Source: Ostreococcus lucimarinus (lineage: Eukaryota). Taken from it: 64,000 nt of DNA. The position numbers were made by a program, and so were the translations under genes. Under the pieces are notes generated by a model. That model saw only the letters and a list, made by a program, of their open reading frames with translations. It was not told the DNA's origin and searched no databases. Positions 4,170 through 57,833 of this stretch are shown piece by piece (position 1 is the first letter of the stretch; each line of letters starts with the position of its first letter). The stretch lies in assembly GCA_000092065.1 (NCBI GenBank), contig CP000582.1; one strand, given 5' to 3'.

Positions 4170-6158
4170 ATGCCGATCAAAAGAGCGTCATACCGCAACG
4201 CGGTGGTGTGCGCTTGCGCTTCTCTTTTCCTCTTCGCCGTTTGCGCTTTGCCAATCAACGCCGAAAATCCTACTGAAATCACGGGCACGGTGATCGGCAT
4301 AGATCTCGGCACGACGTACTCTTGCGTTGGTGCATACGTAAACGGTAAAGTCGAGATCATCGCTAATGATCAAGGGAACAGAATCACACCATCTTACGTC
4401 GCATTCACCGATTCTGAAAGACTAATCGGAGATTCGGCCAAGAACCAGGCGTCTGCCAATCCTACTCGGACGGTGTTTGATGCAAAGCGGCTCATCGGCC
4501 GAAAATTCACGGACAAAGAAGTACAACGCGATCTTAAGATGTTCCCATTCAAAGTTGTGGACAAAGACAGTAAGCCATGCATTGAAGTTGAACTCAAAGA
4601 AGGCAAGAAGGTTTTCCAGGCTGAAGAAATTTCAGCGATGGTTCTCACGAAGATGAAGGAGACCGCCGAGGCGTACCTGGGTAAGGATATCAAACACGCC
4701 GTCGTAACTGTCCCAGCGTATTTCAACGACGCACAGCGTCAAGCGACAAAAGATGCTGGTGTTATCGCTGGCTTAAACGTCGCCCGCATCATTAACGAAC
4801 CCACAGCTGCGGCGATTGCATATGGGTTGGACAAGAAAGGCGAGAAAAACATTCTTGTTTTTGATCTCGGAGGAGGTACGTTCGACGTATCGATTCTCAC
4901 GATCGACAACGGTGTTTTTGAAGTCATCTCCACGAACGGAGATACTCATTTAGGCGGTGAGGACTTCGATCAACGTATCATGGAATATTTCATGAAACTC
5001 ATCAAGCGCAAGCACGGCAAGGACGTATCAGGCGACGTGAAGGCTGTGCAAAAGCTTAGACGTGAAGCCGAAAGGGCTAAGCGAACTCTTTCCAATCAAC
5101 ATCAAGTGCGAGTCGAAATCGAAGCTCTTTTCGATGGGATCGATTTCTCTGAACCCCTTACTCGCGCCCGATTTGAAGAGCTGAACAACGACCTCTTCCG
5201 CAAGACCATGGGACCTGTCAAAAAAGCCATGGATGACGCGGGCATGAAGAAGAGCGAAATCGACGAAATTGTGTTGGTCGGTGGTTCGACTCGAATCCCG
5301 AAGGTTCAGGACCTCCTTCGAGACTTCTTCGACGGCAAGGAACCAAACAGAGGAGTCAATCCTGACGAAGCTGTTGCGTACGGCGCCGCTGTGCAAGGTG
5401 GAATACTTTCGGGTGAAGGCGGCGATGAAACCAAAGATATCCTCTTATTAGACGTGGCACCGCTTACTCAAGGTATTGAAACTGTTGGAGGAGTTATGAC
5501 GAAGCTCATCCCCCGTAATACGGTTATCCCAACTAAGAAGTCACAAACTTTCACCACTTATCAGGACAACCAGCAGACGGTAATGATCCAGGTTTTCGAA
5601 GGCGAACGAGCGATGACTAAAGATAATCATCTTTTGGGTAAGTTCGAGCTCACCTCAATCCCTCCAGCTCCTCGCGGTGTGCCTCAGATTGAGGTCACTT
5701 TTGAAATCGACGCAAATGGCATCCTGAACGTTGGCGCTGAAGACAAGGGAACAGGCAAATCAGAAAAGATCACCATAACGAACGACAAAGGACGGTTGTC
5801 GCAAGAAGAAATTGAGCGCATGGTCGAAGAAGCAGAAGAATTTGCGGAAGAGGATAGGAAGACGAAGGAACGCATTGACTCGCGTAATAGTCTTGAGACG
5901 TTTGCGTACAACATGAAAAACACGATTTCTGACTCCGACAAACTCGCTGACAAGCTCGACGACGACGACAAAAACACGATTGAGGAAGCAGTCAAAGAGA
6001 CTCTTGACTGGTTGGATGAAAATCAAAGCGCTGAAAAAGAAGACTACGACGAACAGCTGAAGCAGCTCGAAGAAGTCTGCAACCCTATTGTGGCCAAAGC
6101 GTATCAGAGCGCGGAAACGGACGATTCGGAGACTGTTGACGAACACGACGAACTTTAA
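4170..6158 (+). CDS. BIP: ER-lumenal Hsp70 chaperone BiP/GRP78.
   Basis: Hydrophobic signal peptide ([20 protein letters not shown]), Hsp70 motifs [12 protein letters not shown] and [10 protein letters not shown], and a C-terminal ER-retention signal HDEL. Intronless 662-aa ORF. Confidence 0.95.
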
Positions 6159-6276
6159 TGTCTGTTCACGGTGGCACGCTTGAAGATTGCAACGCGTAAG
6201 AGACGTAAGAGATTGAGTAGCATGATTTTGTATTAAGCAGTGCCTTCATCCTTCCATGTTTTCGTTTACATCTGAG

Positions 6277-6960
6277 CTATCCCGCCCTCAACCGTACAGA
6301 GTGCCGTTGAATCAGAATGCCGTTGAATCGATCAATGCCCTCTTCGCTAAACTTAGTACCACAGAGTTTAAAAAATGTGAAAGCAGTCAGCAAACTATCA
6401 CTTCCAGCTTGATGTTGTGGACCAATCCTCTCTACTTGCAATAAATCAGCGAGTTTGTTCAGTCCACCGTGTATATTGCCTAGTCGCTTCATCATGAGTT
6501 TCATATCGTAAACTTGTGGGAAGTACTGGTTCAACAGCTCAAAGAACTCGCTTTCTTTTTCTGGAAGTTCTTTACAAGTTGGCAGTTTCAGCAAGTACCC
6601 GAAATCGTAGCCACTGTGAAATGTGATCCAACTCTCTTCATCATTCAATACTACATCACTGACCATCAACAACTCCCCAAACTTTTTGACGTCGATACCG
6701 CGCACTTCGAAGGTAACAAAATCAATGCCGCTTTGTTTCAAAAGCTCTATTGAGTCGCGCGCGTATACATCTTCCCGGAGGCTGAACTCTTTGAAATTGA
6801 ATTGCCAGATACAGTATTGACCATTTACGTGTGCAAGATGTCCGTCGCCGTCAGTGAATGTCAGCCCTAACTGTATAAAGCATATCAACGTTGCAACGCA
6901 GCATGTGATAGTGAAAATCGGACTGTATATAGGGTTGAAAGCCCTTGACTATTGACTTCG
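6277..6960 (-). CDS. CAF1/POP2 deadenylase (CCR4-NOT subunit 7-like). The N-terminal exon or exons are unresolved.
   Basis: The ORF 6277..6888 aligns with CNOT7 from IQLGLTF through WQFNFKF, FHSGYDFGYLLK and ERIGPQHQAGSDSLLT. The upstream peptide ..FHYHMLRCNVDML (about 6872-6960) lies in a different frame; see the findings. Confidence 0.75.
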
Positions 6961-7160: not shown

Positions 7161-8642
7161 ATGAAGACTGATCCGAGGCCATTTCACGAACGAGAGTATG
7201 CTAGAGCGTGCCAGGAGAACCTGAATGTCTTCCTTACCGAGCGGAGTTGTCCCTTCCACATACCGGAGCAAGAATTTTGGAACACTGCTGTTCCAGGAGA
7301 CATAGATTCCGTCGTTTTGTTTGTTCTAAAACTGGTAGAAAACGACGTAGGTGCAGATAGAGTTGAACATTTTAAATTTGCGCTGAAGTGTTTAAAATAT
7401 CCTTTTCCAGTCAATACTACGGCGCTTGGAAAGAAATACAGTTCAGAACAGCACGTGATACCTTTCTTAACGTGGCTAATTTATTTATTCGTATACGAGG
7501 ATAACCACGAAATGAAAAGTGAGACAAGCGAGAACAAAGGGAGGTTACTTTATTTACAGACAAAGGCGCTATATCAGGATTTTCTGCGAGGTGTGGAAGT
7601 GTACGAGCTCAAAACTGCTGAGCGTTTTCTTTGTCGGTCACCACTATCGAAGGAGCAAGTGCACATAGCAAACAATCGTTTGCAAGGTTTGAAATATGCC
7701 GTTTCAAAGAGAAAGGTAGAGTTGCAACAATACACTGCCACTAAACGGAGCTTCATAACAACACTGAGGAACTTAAAACAGCGAAAGATAGCTGCACTTG
7801 AGCGCCTAGATACGACTCCATCACGCATTTCCATCCAACAGCGACTCTATAGTGGCCTCCAGAATAGCTTGCAGGACTATCGCAAAAAGATTCATATTTC
7901 TGTGGACCGACAAACGCAAAATCGACCTGTGCTTAAACAAGTAGAGTCAGACTCAGACTCTCTTGTGAATACTGAGTCATCCATCTCTATATATAGTGCG
8001 CCACTTGCTGACTTAAAAGAATCACTAGAGAAGCAATATGAGGAATATGTTGGACTGTTGGCTACTTTAGGACTCCCGTGGTCGAGAAGAGGTGTTTTGA
8101 ATGAAGGAAAACTGTTGCAGGTTTTGGAAAATTTTGGCATGCATGAGAAAGAGAATAGTGAGAATTTTCGTGAGTTTCGTGCTTTGTTGGAAAGTGAGTT
8201 ATCGCGAATAAGAGCCAGGAATATTGCCACGCTCGACAGACTAAGAAATACGGAAAGCACAGTACAATTTAACTCGGCAGTGAAAGAGAAACAAATTTCC
8301 GAGTGCGTTTCACTTCAGAAGCAACTTCACAAAGCAGACGTTCATTATCAGCAAGAGCGCCAACGCTGTGATGACGAAATACAGGGACTTGTTCAAAATC
8401 TTCGTGAAATAGAGAAACAAGTTCAGTTGATCACTCATGATGCAAATCCGTCACATGTATCAACTGTGATGGAACGATTGCAGAGTGGTTACGACGAAGC
8501 GTCTCAGTTGTTTTCACACGAGAAAGCAACCATACAGGGCAGTTTACTTATTGCGTTAGACTTACTGATGTTGCATAAGCAACGAAATCACGAACTCTTG
8601 AACAACTGGAGCTTACATACTGACTCCGCTGGTACCGTTTAG
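7161..8642 (+). CDS. Kinetochore protein NDC80/HEC1-like.
   Basis: N-terminal DPRP motif followed by a calponin-homology-like region (LKCLKYPFP, W..LIYLF) as in Ndc80, then about 350 aa of predicted coiled coil. Confidence 0.55.
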   Translation: MKTDPRPFHEREYARACQENLNVFLTERSCPFHIPEQEFWNTAVPGDIDSVVLFVLKLVENDVGADRVEHFKFALKCLKYPFPVNTTALGKKYSSEQHVIPFLTWLIYLFVYEDNHEMKSETSENKGRLLYLQTKALYQDFLRGVEVYELKTAERFLCRSPLSKEQVHIANNRLQGLKYAVSKRKVELQQYTATKRSFITTLRNLKQRKIAALERLDTTPSRISIQQRLYSGLQNSLQDYRKKIHISVDRQTQNRPVLKQVESDSDSLVNTESSISIYSAPLADLKESLEKQYEEYVGLLATLGLPWSRRGVLNEGKLLQVLENFGMHEKENSENFREFRALLESELSRIRARNIATLDRLRNTESTVQFNSAVKEKQISECVSLQKQLHKADVHYQQERQRCDDEIQGLVQNLREIEKQVQLITHDANPSHVSTVMERLQSGYDEASQLFSHEKATIQGSLLIALDLLMLHKQRNHELLNNWSLHTDSAGTV

Positions 8643-40639: not shown

Positions 40640-40668
40640 CTTTTTGCTTCACGCCTGTCGGCTTCGCG

Positions 40669-40799
40669 GGAAAAATTTATATATCGCCCCTTTAGAGAGT
40701 ACCTACACACATGACGAGTCATGAACCGTGGATATATACGTATTTAATACGTATCATGTGTGTAGGTACTCTCTAAAGGGGCGATATATAAATTTTTCC
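40669..40799. mobile_element. Minimal foldback copy (about 131 bp) of the 88-bp-TIR element family: two terminal inverted repeats back to back.
   Basis: ggaaaaatttatatatcgcccctttagagagtacctacacacatga ... tcatgtgtgtaggtactctctaaaggggcgatatataaatttttcc is a perfect ~45-bp palindromic arm pair. Apart from one or two substitutions it is identical to the TIRs at 56620 and 57474. Confidence 0.6.
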
Positions 40800-41065
40800 A
40801 CTGTTCAGAGCAAAAAGAACCTTAGGCATACAAACAAATGGAGTGTTGTACTTCAAGTATGATTCGTCTACAATTCTACTTCACCCATCGTATCATCATC
40901 AGTATCGCTACCGCGTTCTTCCACTTTGTTCAAGTTTGTGATTTGCTCAGCAAGAAGTTTGTCGTCACGTTCGCTCACAACTCGCGCGCTTTCTTTTATC
41001 AGTAACTTTCCGCCTTTAGATGTGATGTATTCCTAAGATTTTATCAAGTCTTTGCGATGTGTACA

Positions 41066-42072
41066 CTAAATTATTCTCACCTGTAAGACACTTATGGCTT
41101 TATCCACCAAACTGATTCCAAACTCCCGTTCAGACGTTTGAGTTGAAAGAACATACAGTGGAGAAGCGACTAAAGACATCTTCACTTTGCAATCTTCCGT
41201 CGAGACAAGTTCGGCAGCACGCATAGCACTCTTAATATGGAGAACGCCGTCGTACTGGAAACAAGTCAACTCAACGTCAGCTCTGATTTTTAGCGGCTGT
41301 GGTGTCATCCGTCTTCGAATATCTTTGAGCAGCGTAAGGGCAACTGATTCGTCAACTGTTTGATTATCTTCGTCTCCAGATGCACGAAATTCTGCGATCT
41401 CTCGGTGAAGTAAGCTGGAGTCCATGACAAACATTTTGAATGCATCGAATGCGTGACCATACTTCCTATAGAGAGGCCAACCAATGGACTACAAAAGGGT
41501 CACAGTCCGCAGCAACAAGTTTGGACACAGTATACCTTGTATAATGTTTCGGGAAGCGTCCCTGTCGTCTCCGAAACGTGTCTGATGATAGAATGAACCA
41601 CCTTGCTTTTGTTGAACTTGATCTCACATGCTTCAACATCTTCAGGGGACACTCGTCTGAATGATAGTGAGTGACTGCAAAGAACTTCAGTACGTGCATA
41701 CCTTTTTGAAAGGTCAATGTAACCCTTCTCTTCGTCAACACGCAGCACCATCGCTGGCTCAATTCTACCGACCTGGAAGCAAACTAAGAATTATCTTCCT
41801 GGAAAATGCTGCGGTACAGATCCTACCTTTATGAGCTTCGAAACTGAACGAATACGTCTTCTGGTCAGTTCTGACAACAAAATCATGCCTTCAATGTTGT
41901 CATATTCCAGTAGCTGAACGTAAGCACCCATTTCTGCTATGCTTTTGACCTATCTCACAGCATTCGAAATAGGAAGCTAGCAGTATGACGAGCGTGTTTA
42001 CCTGTACCATAACAACCTGGTCGATCTCTGGAAACCTCTCGGCGTACATTCTACACTCAGGGGCCTTCATTG
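41066..42072 (-). CDS. SUI2: Translation initiation factor eIF2 alpha subunit, multi-exon.
   Basis: Minus-strand exons: [23 protein letters not shown] (ATG near 42070), [41 protein letters not shown] (about 41830-41950), and [35 protein letters not shown]. That last exon contains an in-frame 45-nt intron (GTATGC..TTCAG) that ORF 41500..41751 reads through. The C-terminal part follows: [43 protein letters not shown]. Confidence 0.85.
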
Positions 42073-45000
42073 CGAAGTAAGGTCAACTCAAGCTGACGAA
42101 CAGGGGGCAACTAACCATGTTGTAGTAGAGCACTTTTTTGTTTTTCACGTTCTTGCGCTGTCCGCTTCTGCGCTCGGTTGGCTGTGCGCTTGTGCGGGTT
42201 CTTTTTGTTTTGTTTTTAGTAACATTTTTTATTTTTTTGTCTTAGATTGTGTTCTTTATAGTCGATGTGAATGGTTCAATACGATCAAATATGACATGCT
42301 GCACCGCGCCTCGCTTTGTCTCGGTTGCCCTGAGCAACTGGGACGACCAGTCGCTCCAGTCGTCACGTCGCTCCAAGTGTGTCAGGCAGCATAGCACGGA
42401 CGACTGCATATGATGTGTGCGGATATCACAAGACCTTTGTGTGTACTGCAGCCGACAATCTCTCATCGCAGGTTGGTCCGGACTTCGGCGCGTAAAACCA
42501 CCAGTGAAACGTCTTTCTCGCCTCGGGTCGTCGACGTCGAAAGTTTTGAGGCGTACGGACAGGCACGAATAGCATCGATGAACAAATGCGCAACGAAATT
42601 TAATTTTGCGCAGATAATCTCATCGCAAGAAGACGGAGCGAGATTTTCGATCGAGCGGGTGAGTTAAGTTGAGCAGCTCCCGAAAACACTGACAGTAGCA
42701 AAGGAAGCAAAACTCGACTTAGCAGAAGGTGTACCGAGACTGTATATGATGCGACTTCGCAATAAAGGTGGTCGTCTTCAATTCGATGAGATGAATTATC
42801 ACGGCCTTTCCTCTCAATCGCTCAGTTCTGTTTCAGAGCTAGACTGGTATGCGTTATTCGTATTTGACAGCTCAAATAGGCGTTGTGACACTTAAGATTC
42901 CAGGTTCATCGCTGTATCCAGGGCTACATTCTCAGAAGAACAATTTCCTTCACACGATGATATTGAAGTATTTCGGATCCCAGGTGTGGGATCTATAAAA
43001 TCCAAGAAGCTCAGAAATATTCACCTCTGACAGGACATGTTGCCATCAATCTCAATAAAGGCACGTGGCATGCTGGTCCCCTTTTTAGCGTAAGTATCGT
43101 GATTCGAATGCTGTGTCTCTGAATCTGATGGTTGTGAATATAAGGAAGACGAGCGGGATTTCTTAAACCTCGAACTGATGGATACAAACACGAAAGATCG
43201 TTATGGTCACAAGTATGAGGACAGTGGAACTCGTTTCACAATAGAACTGTGACGATGGTGTAGCATCATTTTGTAAGTATCCATTACTATCGCACAAACA
43301 GGCAGTATTACCGTAGCTATAGTCCATCAGGAATATACCAACTGACTAGCAACACTTGTAGAGACACTTACCCCGCATCCGCGCAACCACCAAACCTCAT
43401 TTCCACACTATCACGCCACTTCCTGCAGCGTGCAGCGAGGGCGAGAGAGTACCGAAGACTAGATCCTTCCGTACTGCACGTATAATTAGCACACTTGAGA
43501 TACAAGAATGGAGATTGCTTCTAAATATCAGGAGATAATTCGCGAAGTCATCAAAAATGTATCCGTACGTTGCCACGGGCTTTCACGCCAGTCCAAGTGT
43601 TCAGTACCACAAACAGGCAGAATTCACAGCGGAACACGTGAACGGGGAAGTTTTGAAACAACTCGAAAAGGCACGTACATTACAAGCGCTTGTTTCACGT
43701 TCTTGAACATCGTGGCAATAGTCGTGGGAACATAAATTGCTTCAGTCTGGCGCTCTTTCCGTGAACTCCGGTCTGAAAACCGCGCCGATAATACCTCACA
43801 GGGGTGACGCTTGCAGCAAAAGCATCGACGAGGATGACAAGTTCGTAGCACTTCAACTCGCTTCAACTTGTAGACTCACTGTCTTCATAGTAAACTGACA
43901 ACTGGAACGAGTGAACTTCAAGAAGTTGGACACGCAGCACCCAACCCCAAGGTAATACTTTTTCAACGGGTTATTTCAATATGTATTAAACAAGGTCATA
44001 CTCATAGGACGAGACGGGCACCAAACGAAAGGTTGAAATGTCGTGTTGTGATTATTTCAACTTCTTACTTTGCTTGTAGCGTGAAACTGACAAACCAGCC
44101 GTGCCTGATCTCGGCCAGGACGAAGTGATAAGCACAGATAGCGAAGATGATAATCTTGGTAAGCATTCACCTTTCATCGATAATCGTCTGTCATATTTTG
44201 AGTGTAGAAACGGAACCTGTTACTTCAAATTTGGTGCTTAGTCAGTTTGAGAAAGTGGGGAGAACAAAGAATAAATGGAAGTGTGCGTTCAGGGATGGTG
44301 TCATGTTACTAAATGGGACTGAGTATGTGTTCGGTAAGGCTACTGCGGAATTTCTTTGGTGACTTTTGTTCGTTCTCTTGTCCATTGTTACTAGAAATCT
44401 TTTTGTGCGACAAGCTGCGTATTTCTTCGTAGCAATATTTTGATTGTTACGGAAGACCGAGCAAATCGCTCTGTTATTAAAGCGTTCCCCCAACTCGCTA
44501 CAAAGAAGTAAGCGCTCTTCGACGACCTACTTCGTCTTCTAGCATGGCGTTTGCTGACTTAAGGAGACCAGAATAGTCATGCGAAGCTATCCGTAGCAGT
44601 TCAAGAAGGCAGTGCTTTATGTCGACAATTCGGACGTCTGAAGTAGTCTCAAATTTCATGCACCTGTGAAACGAACAGTATGCCGAGTCGAATTGTAACT
44701 GTCGACGAACTTGCTGATACCCACTCGAACTTGCCTCAGTTTCGAAGTTTGGAGAAGCTGTCTTTGCTCTCAGCAGAAGTTTTCGAAAGTTTGAGCTACC
44801 AGGGCGCGCGTCGCATTGACACTTCAACTCGGTGATTCTTGAGCGGGCGCGGTTGATTTCATGAGTCGCACCCTCGACATCTCGCTTGAGACTAGACATC
44901 TCTTTTTCATAAGCACGGCAAGCGGCAACGAGTTCTGTTAGCTTTTCTACGTTCACGGCCTTTTTCACTGAACAAAACTTTAAGAGTATCTTTAGTTTGA

Positions 45001-45280
45001 TAAACTGCACGCACTGCTAGATATTTGCATGTCTTCTTCCGAAATTCGTAGATGATCCTAAAGCGCGTCAGTTCTACACGAACTTCGAACTTCTTCAAAG
45101 TATACCTGCACGCTCTTCAGCAAATTGTCTTCGAACATCGTCAACCGTGACTTTGGTTTGAGCGCGACGTGCGCGTTGCGAGTCTAGTATAGAAGGTTTT
45201 ACGATATCATATACAGCCATATATGACTGAGGGCCTTGACAACAACATGTTTCGTTTCTTTGATTTTATATGTCATATCC

Positions 45281-45427
45281 GTATGTATTACTTTCCACGC
45301 CCTAATGTATGGGGTGTTAGCACTTCTCGATCGCCACGCGCGCGTTGTGGCGTCGTCGCGAGTTATTAGCACTTCGACGGCGCGCACATATTAGGGACGT
45401 GGAAAGTAATACATACTGATATGTGAG
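45281..45427. mobile_element. Short MITE-like element with ~26-bp terminal inverted repeats.
   Basis: gtatgtattactttccacgccctaat (45281-45306) against attagggacgtggaaagtaatacatac (45390-45416, one mismatch). An internal duplicated ttagcacttc and a GC palindrome lie between them. The terminal motif ggaaagtaatacatactgatat is shared with 13868-13890. Confidence 0.5.
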
Positions 45428-45556
45428 TAAAAATAAGTCGTCGCGCGGTTTGTCGAAGAGTTCAGCTGACCCTGACGAGAAAGCAGGCAGCAACATAGAA
45501 GGCGATAAACCATCGCGGCAGCTTCAGGGTCCGCGGGAAGGACTTTACTTGGACCG

Positions 45557-56290: not shown

Positions 56291-56619
56291 CTATCAAATC
56301 GACTTGCACCTGGTTTTGGTAGCATCGATCCGTGTACACGAATATAACCGTAGGAAGGCGATAATTCAGCGCATATTTGCTTAGAGTGTTAACGCATTCG
56401 GCGCGATCGACTGAATATTACCGTAAAACGGTACACGTACTTGAATATGATTCTGCGAATCCTGAATTTGTTCGCTCGTACGCAAGTCGTCTACGATAGC
56501 TCACAGTGATGAGCGTCGCTGTTCGTTCCGCCGTGCAGCTGCAACCCGAACAGCAACGATTCCCCGGCCGGATACAGCTCAACCGCTCTCGATTTGCCAA
56601 CCAAGACTATTTCTGAGAG

Positions 56620-57474
56620 GGAAAAATTTATATATCGCACCTTTAGAGAGTACCTACACACATGACGAGTCATGAACCGTGGATATATACGTATTTTACA
56701 CCGTTTAGTTCTAAAAGTTTGATTCTACAACATCTACGAGAGGTAGTTCCTAATGCTAATTTGCTCGCCTTTGCTTGCCTTGCGTTTGTGTTCATCGACC
56801 ATCTTCTCGTGCCAGCCCCTCTTCCTGCTCAACGCCGTATCACCCGCCGCGCCTCTCATAGGAATCGCAACCAGGTTCGACATACCGAGCACACCATCGC
56901 CGTCCATTTTGCTATTCTTGGACATGTTTTGAGACATCTCTCTGTGTGTCTTCAAGTTGTGCATGAAACGTTGAAGTTTGTTGAGCGTGTCTGTGATGTG
57001 TGCGGCTTCATCAGGCTCGAACGTGAATTCTGGATCGAGTGCGAGTTGTGTCAACTCGGCGGTCATTTGTGCCCAGCGTAACTTTACACTCACGTTGTCG
57101 AAAGCTGCTCCAAGGCTTCTCCGATGAGTTGGTAGAGAGGCTTCAACATTATCTGGAATCGCTGGAGTCACGTGTCTCCTGGAATCGCTGGAGTCACGTG
57201 TCTCCTGGAGCCCGGACGATACGTGAAGAGCATCACCGAACGGATCGTCGAAGGGATCATCGTCGCACTCGTCTTCCATCCGACCATCGCCCGCACGCGC
57301 GACGACAACTGGCGCGACAGGCGTGGAAAAGACACGAGGCGAACGTGTTTTTCACCAAGGTAGGAATACTCTATTGTAGATGGCACTAAACGGTGTAAAA
57401 TACGTATATATCCACGGTTCATGACTCGTCATGTGTGTAGGTACTCTCTAAAGGTGCGATATATAAATTTTTCC
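56620..57474. mobile_element. Non-autonomous DNA transposon (about 855 bp) with ~88-bp terminal inverted repeats and a putative 9-bp target-site duplication.
   Basis: The left TIR 56620-56708 (ggaaaaatttatatatcgcacctttagagagtacctacacacatgacgagtcatgaaccgtggatatatacgtattttacaccgtttagt) is the near-perfect reverse complement of 57386-57474. The flanks show ttctgagag at 56611-56619 and 57516-57524. A 41-bp terminal segment is tandemly duplicated (57441-57481 and 57482-57522). The interior carries a 26-bp x2 direct repeat (57155-57206) and no recognisable transposase. Confidence 0.7.
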
Positions 57475-57833
57475 TTCTGAGGTACTCTCTAAAGGTGCGA
57501 TATATAAATTTTTCCTTCTGAGAGCAGTCCATGTCGTCGTAAAATTAACAAAATGATTTAATATGTACCCCTAGTATCGTTAAATACTGTAGTATTTGGA
57601 AGTATTTGGATAAAGCCGTTGGAATTAAAACCAAGAATGCTGGAAGAGTCTGCCCTATCTGCCTATCGTTCCGTAAGTGCGCGAAGAGACTGACGCGCAC
57701 TGGAACCGTCGATACAGTTATATCGGTTCAACGACGGTTCAACGACGGCCGCACGTGTATTTCATTTGTGAACACCGGTGCACCATAATACTTCGCGAAC
57801 GAGTATAACAAGAAAAGCCCAAAGCCCGAAGGT

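Follow-up and report, generated by a model that had tools for sequence, protein, structure and literature searches.

A 64,000-nucleotide stretch of Ostreococcus lucimarinus DNA (contig CP000582.1; referred to below as the window), which exact protein matches assign to an 895,087-bp record of strain CCE9901 and which we take to be chromosome 2, carries an 855-bp element at positions 56620-57474. We conclude that this element is very probably a non-autonomous Mutator-like element (MULE) that arose by internal deletion from a MULE carrying a ULP1 protease domain, which is the best overall explanation of its termini, its target-site duplication (TSD) and its remaining open reading frame (ORF). An earlier reading made from the letters of the window alone (the sequence-only reading) had called it a non-autonomous DNA transposon, and this is confirmed; its superfamily, Mutator/MULE, was identified through the relatives of the 181-aa ORF that it contains. 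With a G+C content of about 46%, the window falls within the low-GC 'big outlier' part of chromosome 2, which is known to be transposon-rich (bioRxiv 10.1101/2025.04.21.649811).

Architecture of the element and its transposase relatives

The element is located between an E2F gene and a DUF212 gene, as the sequence-only reading had stated, and Pfam identified both neighbours (E2F_TDP, 3.2e-25; DUF212, 3.2e-48). The repeat tool returned inverted arms of 97 nt with 98% identity (56613-56709 and 57385-57481), in which seven partly palindromic flank bases were included. After the flank was trimmed, the terminal inverted repeats (TIRs) were delimited to 56620-56709 (plus strand), at the end downstream of the 181-aa ORF, and 57385-57474 (minus strand), at the end upstream of it, with 90 of 90 bases identical as reverse complements. 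The repeats of about 88 bp reported earlier (56620-56708 and 57386-57474) are thus real, with a corrected length of 90 bp and complete identity. Five occurrences of the 35-bp TIR tip were counted in the window, and none in 100 shuffles. The 9-mer TTCTGAGAG, previously noticed at both ends, was indeed found abutting the left TIR (56611-56619) and again at 57516-57524, where it abuts a duplicated right tip. In this extra 41-bp copy (57475-57515), 7 bp of flank (TTCTGAG) precede 34 bp of TIR tip; it forms the second half of an exact tandem duplication (57439-57479 and 57480-57520), and the duplication had been placed at 57441-57481 and 57482-57522, relative to which its phase is ambiguous by 2 bp. 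The interior holds the 26-bp direct repeat that had also been described, an exact tandem duplication (57153-57178 and 57179-57204) occupying 57153-57204.

The superfamily was assigned through the 181-aa ORF (56734-57279, minus strand), annotated as XP_001416445.1 'predicted protein', for which 61 homologues were found. Pfam returned nothing significant for the interior ORFs, and the sequence-only reading had seen no transposase-like motifs in them. The 181-aa ORF is in fact a transposase remnant, which joins both ends of a C48-MULE transposase from which the catalytic part is gone. Its residues 1-33 match the N-terminus of the longer proteins P0055 and P0123, and likewise that of L001 and L012, and its last ~139 residues match the C-terminus of P0014 and P0122, as judged by aligning the ORF with the transposase termini by eye. 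From its N-terminus the ORF comprises transposase residues 1-33, nine frame-shifted residues contributed by the 26-bp duplication, and the last ~139 residues.

The DDE domain was reached by chaining homologues, from the N- and C-terminal fragments to P0122 and P0126 and from these to L013, P0184 and L046. In L013 a homologous left TIR precedes three ORFs (409, 268 and 668 aa), of which the second was identified as Peptidase_C48 (1.9e-12, 47.9 bits, cutoff 20.7) and the third, which ends like the window ORF, as MULE (PF10551; 4e-11, 43.7 bits, cutoff 27.6). Both domains occur in P0184, a single 902-aa ORF in which C48 (4.6e-19) lies N-terminal to the MULE DDE domain (6.1e-11). In L046 an uninterrupted MULE-domain ORF (4.6e-11) ends in ...KASKGEQISIRNYLS, as does the window ORF, and is followed by the family TIR, with 33 of 35 tip bases matching. 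PF10551 scored above its 27.6-bit cutoff in three relatives (the third ORF of L013, L046 and P0184), and the motifs MDSTF, VDCCWAE, WCQFHV and TGSIESFHGRWK of the autonomous relatives were read as MULE signatures. Because the 181-aa ORF represents the fused termini of such a C48-MULE transposase, the element belongs to the Mutator/MULE superfamily (class II, DDE), which the 9-bp TSD and the 90-bp TIRs fit; members of that superfamily make TSDs of about 9 bp, in a range of 8-11, and typically have TIRs tens to hundreds of bp long. The window copy itself has neither the MULE nor the C48 domain, and tblastn detected no other transposase segment in the 64-kb window; all that it encodes is the 181-aa fusion of N- and C-terminal fragments, and it is not autonomous.

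At the place where a SWIM-type zinc finger (CxCxnCxH) is expected, downstream of the DDE domain, the relatives have the motif CSCALGRNGQ(L/V)C, in which the His is not evident, together with a weak ZSWIM1-3_RNaseH-like match below cutoff. Their N-terminal region is Cys-rich (CCECGPEDC...KKCGCKK), and for it Pfam at E<=1 gave only weak C2H2 matches. A diverged sister subfamily (L062-L069, the P0183 family) with ~70% protein identity retains an intact 649-aa MULE ORF, in which no C48 was detected by Pfam. A diverged but homologous right TIR (GGGATAAATCTATATATTGCCGG...) was located in it at L064 3274-3345, and L062-L066, when checked, had only the diverged right TIR and no left TIR.

Insertion-site alleles, family copies and probable repair scars

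The E2F/DUF212 locus was retrieved from environmental assemblies by means of DUF212 orthologues. L007 represents the empty site in intact form, having flanks 97-98% identical to those in the window, a single TTCTGAGAG (L007 3673-3681) and no element. Because this empty allele holds just one TTCTGAGAG, the 9-bp TSD is proven, and the claim made earlier from the flanking 9-mers is borne out by a natural haplotype. The occupied site was reproduced at 99.8-99.9% identity in the independent metagenome assemblies L003, L004, L015 and L049, and the 41-bp duplication is present in L003, L004 and L015, the contigs that reach far enough. In a third allele, L023, a 65-bp remnant of the right TIR stands between two copies of TTCTGAGAG. 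The site accordingly has at least three wild alleles: empty, full, and eroded to a solo TIR. A possible fourth allele, L005, was set aside; its interior matches an L045-type element, and the contig starts only 240 bp in and may be a chimeric scaffold.

Family copies were sought by scanning metagenomes with the TIR tip, which was found at 36 loci with more than 20 distinct flanks; the same scan of viral contigs gave no match, and nothing pointed to a virus-borne copy. Copies at other loci are 97-99% identical, which supports the earlier suggestion that the family was active recently. Besides the 855-bp element with its 9-bp TTCTGAGAG, a TSD flanks the copies in L016 (1,134 bp; CTCTTGACG, 9 bp), L025 (98 bp; CCGAAAACC, 9 bp) and L022 (807 bp; TCGGATCG, 8 bp). 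The copies at 40.7 kb of the window (131 bp), in L002 (854 bp), in L014/L039 (221 bp) and in L045 (268 bp) have none. Every one of the short copies (98, 131, 221 and 268 bp) has a different structure, and no set of many near-identical copies of one structure with a TSD, as expected of miniature inverted-repeat transposable elements (MITEs), was seen among them. Since their structures and breakpoints all differ, the short copies are heterogeneous deletion derivatives that arose independently, and not an amplified, uniform MITE family. An O. tauri contig (L001; GCA_002158475.1, KZ155840.1) contains at 7706-7858 two degenerate TIR arms in a foldback-like arrangement, with ~75% identity to the TIR of the window; this pair adjoins a larger copy (4452-6904) holding two insertions that are absent from the window element.

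Comparison with the longer copies L001, P0003 and P0055 placed the internal deletion junction at ...CCAGCG/ATTCCAG... on the minus strand, and the 26-bp duplication spans it. The L002 copy shares both the junction and the duplication, and the L022 copy has no such duplication. Differing junctions were found in P0003, P0016, P0123, P0127, P0185, L014, L022, L025 and L045. Varied internal deletions of this sort are what normally results when the repair of an excision gap is interrupted, as in Ac/Ds, Mu and P elements. The termini are scarred as well: besides the 41-bp duplication, the TIR tip is duplicated in tandem over 35 bp at L014 11474-11543 (Ga0228638_1000004), and the alternative allele at the same site has five extra bases (CCCCG) between TIR and flank (L002 4790-4806). 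Terminal scars are thus recurrent in the family, and the fact that the terminus is hit repeatedly suggests repair following cleavage by the transposase more than slippage at random. The sequence-only reading had offered slippage and aberrant excision or repair side by side; on this evidence repair would be the favoured origin and random slippage the disfavoured one.

The ancestor would have been an autonomous MULE with one transposase of ~1,300-1,400 aa, in which a Cys-rich N-terminus was followed by the Ulp1/C48 protease, the MULE DDE domain, then a CxC...C motif resembling SWIM, and finally a C-terminal tail. One internal deletion probably removed nearly all of the coding sequence and left the two 90-bp TIRs, the subterminal regions and the fused N-/C-terminal ORF. 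Transposase acting in trans inserted the derivative between E2F and DUF212 by cut-and-paste, duplicating TTCTGAGAG. The internal deletion and the 26-bp and 41-bp duplications may all be scars of interrupted, template-switching gap repair (synthesis-dependent strand annealing) following cleavage or excision, and the 65-bp TIR remnant between two TSD copies in L023 could be a scar of the same process.

This account has to be weighed against three others that bear on the 855-bp element itself. Merlin elements and some P and hAT elements have TSDs of 8-9 bp, and one family copy, L022, has a TSD of 8 bp; moreover a DDE_Tnp_4 (PIF/Harbinger transposase) gene lies ~2 kb from the L002 copy on a GC-rich Ostreococcus contig (L002 2057-2872). 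An assignment to hAT, P, Merlin or PIF/Harbinger, with the MULE likeness being coincidental or due to nested insertions, is nevertheless very unlikely, as the ends of the window ORF are collinear with MULE-domain ORFs that adjoin homologous TIRs (L013 on the left, L046 on the right), the MULE domain exceeds its curated cutoff in three independent relatives, and PIF/Harbinger TSDs measure 3 bp; the DDE_Tnp_4 gene indicates a second class II family. Even less credence is due to the view that the palindromes and tandem duplications arose from collapsed or mis-joined reads. Such repeats are classic sources of misassembly, and the related contig L072, possibly also L005, looks chimeric at the TIR; yet the structure of the occupied site recurs at near identity in four assemblies from different projects and assemblers, those reaching the right end carry the 41-bp duplication, and L070, L071 and L073 in turn contain the 40.7-kb foldback. 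Because independent assemblies reproduce the occupied site, an assembly artefact, which the sequence-only reading had named as a possible source of the repeats, is excluded.

The third alternative, that the 181-aa ORF is a working host or element protein, for example a truncated-transposase repressor like KP of the P elements, is unlikely, if not as strongly opposed as the other two. The frame is open and annotated as a protein, many deletion derivatives in the databases keep an open frame, and the 26-bp duplication brings the N- and C-terminal parts into the same frame: a simple deletion junction would meet a stop codon, and the +2 frame shift introduced by the duplication reopens the frame, which is why XP_001416445.1 came to be annotated. 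Restoration of a frame, however, has a 1-in-3 chance of occurring, and the protein database contains open frames only, which biases what is seen. The ORF has no Pfam domain. Comparison of the window copy with the L002 copy, which has the same deletion, revealed three synonymous and 11 nonsynonymous codon differences plus a terminal frameshift, as expected without constraint, and on this codon count the ORF appears to be under none. XP_001416445.1 is a dead transposase remnant.

The 40.7-kb foldback and a polymorphic 4.6-kb inversion

The window holds a second copy, a 131-bp foldback (40669-40799) whose left arm (40669-40745) corresponds to TIR positions 1-77 and whose right arm has a 22-bp internal deletion; an A>C change is common to both arms. 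It is situated 75 bp upstream of the RPC3 start codon, and its flanks, ggcttcgcg and actgttcag, do not match, so that there is no TSD. The earlier description of this copy as two TIR arms alone is correct; what was there called a foldback/MITE configuration is no simple MITE insertion, given the missing TSD and the position at an inversion breakpoint. The adjoining 4.6-kb segment from eIF2-alpha to TFIIA (40800-45424) is inverted with respect to a widespread haplotype that is otherwise 99.5-99.9% identical. This other orientation was found in L050, L057, L058, L059, L060 and L061, and the window arrangement, foldback included, in L070, L071, L073 and about 19 similar places at 99.97% identity. 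Since each orientation was seen in many independent assemblies from the environment, about 20 of them for that of the window, both exist in nature, and the inversion is polymorphic.

The RPC3-side homology between the two arrangements ends exactly at 40668, beside the outer end of the foldback, and haplotypes of the other orientation have no element at either junction. They do have 24 + 76 bp of junction sequence that is absent from the window (L059 738-761 and 5393-5468), and where these are missing, the second inversion junction (45417-45424) shows a microhomology of 7 of 8 bp, TGA(T/C)ATGT. Beside the second breakpoint lies a different small inverted-repeat element (45263-45434) whose 40-nt arms are 83% complementary and 92 nt apart, and part of it recurs at L016 3495-3587.

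Within the same family, the foldback is probably a derivative shortened by deletion to an extreme degree. If its terminus was broken and a second break arose 4.6 kb away, end joining could have reinstated the segment in inverted orientation; microhomology-mediated joining would then have lost the now-adjacent 24 + 76 bp (~100 bp) and one copy of the TSD. On such a model the lack of a TSD at the foldback would be due to the break and inversion. Two other routes to the inversion were considered. Ectopic recombination between two inverted copies was rejected, as no element is present at the second breakpoint in either orientation, and classical reversed-ends transposition is a poor fit, as both arms stand together at one junction. 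L072 was not used as a third arrangement upstream of RPC3, since it may be an assembly chimera or a product of ectopic exchange between two TIR copies. A TIR that breaks off at position 62 abuts one GC-rich sequence, from the region of an RCC1/EamA gene, both in L072, next to RPC3 (2865-2927), and at another locus, in L031 (11220-11290).

The main alternative to a break at the terminus is that the foldback did not cause the inversion, having been captured as filler DNA at an unrelated inversion, when a fragment of an excised or extrachromosomal element was ligated into the break, or that it was inserted normally and lost its TSD later. We regard this as possible, though the less probable of the accounts. 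It would agree with the lack of a TSD here and at several further copies, with the absence of an element from both junctions of the other orientation, and with the position of the second breakpoint beside a different inverted-repeat element. The breakpoint, on the other hand, coincides to the base with an intact TIR terminus, while the RPC3 and eIF2-alpha flanks lost nothing, and a base-exact terminus is more readily explained by cleavage there than by capture at random; had the element entered the junction later, furthermore, a TSD should have resulted. A break at the foldback terminus is therefore preferred, and through it the inversion may be linked to transposase action.

Counter-evidence, known systems and significance

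Several observations weigh against the interpretation as a whole. The search yielded no autonomous copy that is complete, with a TSD and both TIRs: L013 has only the left TIR, in L064 just one TIR can be recognised, and L046 is truncated by the contig end. The NCBI reference proteomes gave no homologue with a MULE domain (the last homologue search returned five proteins, none of them from NCBI), and Pfam detected neither a SWIM domain nor a FAR1/WRKY-type DNA-binding domain in the relatives. A TSD is absent from four of the eight paired copies (40.7 kb, L002, L014/L039 and L045), and the inversion accounts for only one of these four, the 40.7-kb foldback. The solo TIR of L023 carries a C variant at a site where both arms of the window element carry A, which needs conversion, whether from arm to arm or by an ectopic copy, or else that the site was hit by a second insertion. 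The repair scars and the break-induced inversion, finally, are mechanisms read from structures and are put forward as such.

The site in question is an A/C polymorphism at TIR position 20 (CGCACC or CGCCCC). It was compared at 56620-56654, 57440-57474, 40669-40703 and 40765-40799 and in the paired copies L002, L014, L016, L022 and L045, and the two arms agree within every paired copy. This agreement, together with the mismatch in L023, suggests homogenisation between arms or ectopic replacement during repair.

Among known systems, maize Mu1 and dMuDR of the MuDR family are similar in that they have a 9-bp TSD and long TIRs, which here measure 90 bp, and arose from a transposase-encoding element through internal deletion; the autonomous relatives of the Ostreococcus element carry the Pfam MULE DDE domain. 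They differ in that the host here is a picoplanktonic green alga with a 13-Mb genome, that no SWIM or FAR1/WRKY domain by Pfam and no second, MURB-like gene is present, and that, in a small sample, an unusually large share of copies has duplicated tips or lacks a TSD. Mu insertions are usually found in 5' intergenic regions, and both window copies (56.6 kb and 40.7 kb) sit in such regions. Mutator transposons with Ulp1 domains have been described in plants, hydra and lancelet (PMC2836005). The combination of C48 and MULE in P0184 and L013 thus has parallels in the ULP1-carrying MULEs of Arabidopsis (KI-MULE/VANDAL20), melon (CUMULE), rice, maize, hydra and lancelet. Several plant KI-MULEs have ULP in a separate gene and may lack the transposase; here, by contrast, C48 and DDE share one continuous ORF in P0184, and it is the window copy that has lost C48. 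The 131-bp copy resembles MITEs and foldback elements in consisting of two TIR arms that are able to fold back, and mini copies of 98-268 bp exist, whereas the short copies are non-uniform and the window foldback has no TSD. Alternative transposition of Ac/Ds and the inversions and deletions caused by P elements offer a parallel for the inversion, with one breakpoint at a TIR terminus and microhomology and loss at the other junction; they differ in that both arms are found here at one junction, as opposed to ends split between the breakpoints in reversed-ends transposition.

MULEs have been reported in the low-GC BOC1 region of Mamiellales; they are of the same superfamily, occupy the same compartment and show the same tie to structural variation (bioRxiv 10.1101/2025.04.21.649811). 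That study is a class survey at the scale of whole genomes, and the portions of it available to us do not describe the TIRs, TSD, deletion series, insertion polymorphism or inversion of this family. Given that the kind of element, the mechanism and the enrichment in the compartment were already known, our results refine the picture rather than change it. For a transposon family of a host that ranks among the smallest free-living eukaryotes, they establish the superfamily, the TIRs, the TSD and the coding architecture, with C48 and the MULE DDE domain in one ORF, and they reassign the 'predicted protein' XP_001416445.1 to a transposase remnant.

A wider reading, which we offer tentatively and consider somewhat doubtful, is that the ends of this MULE family are recurrent break sites in natural Ostreococcus populations and thereby a source of structural variation in the candidate mating-type compartment, the low-GC outlier part of chromosome 2. 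It is based on the absence of TSDs from half of the paired copies, on the copy located exactly at an inversion breakpoint, on the tip duplications at two loci and on the presence of at least three alleles at the E2F/DUF212 site. If it is true, breaks made by the transposase and their misrepair, and not insertion itself, would be a main driver of the hypervariability of the outlier chromosome. The segregating empty, full and eroded alleles, and the inversion, could serve as markers in wild populations, where they could also be used, as a natural experiment of modest size, to follow the remodelling of the low-GC outlier chromosome in Mamiellales by cut-and-paste elements and the scars of their repair.

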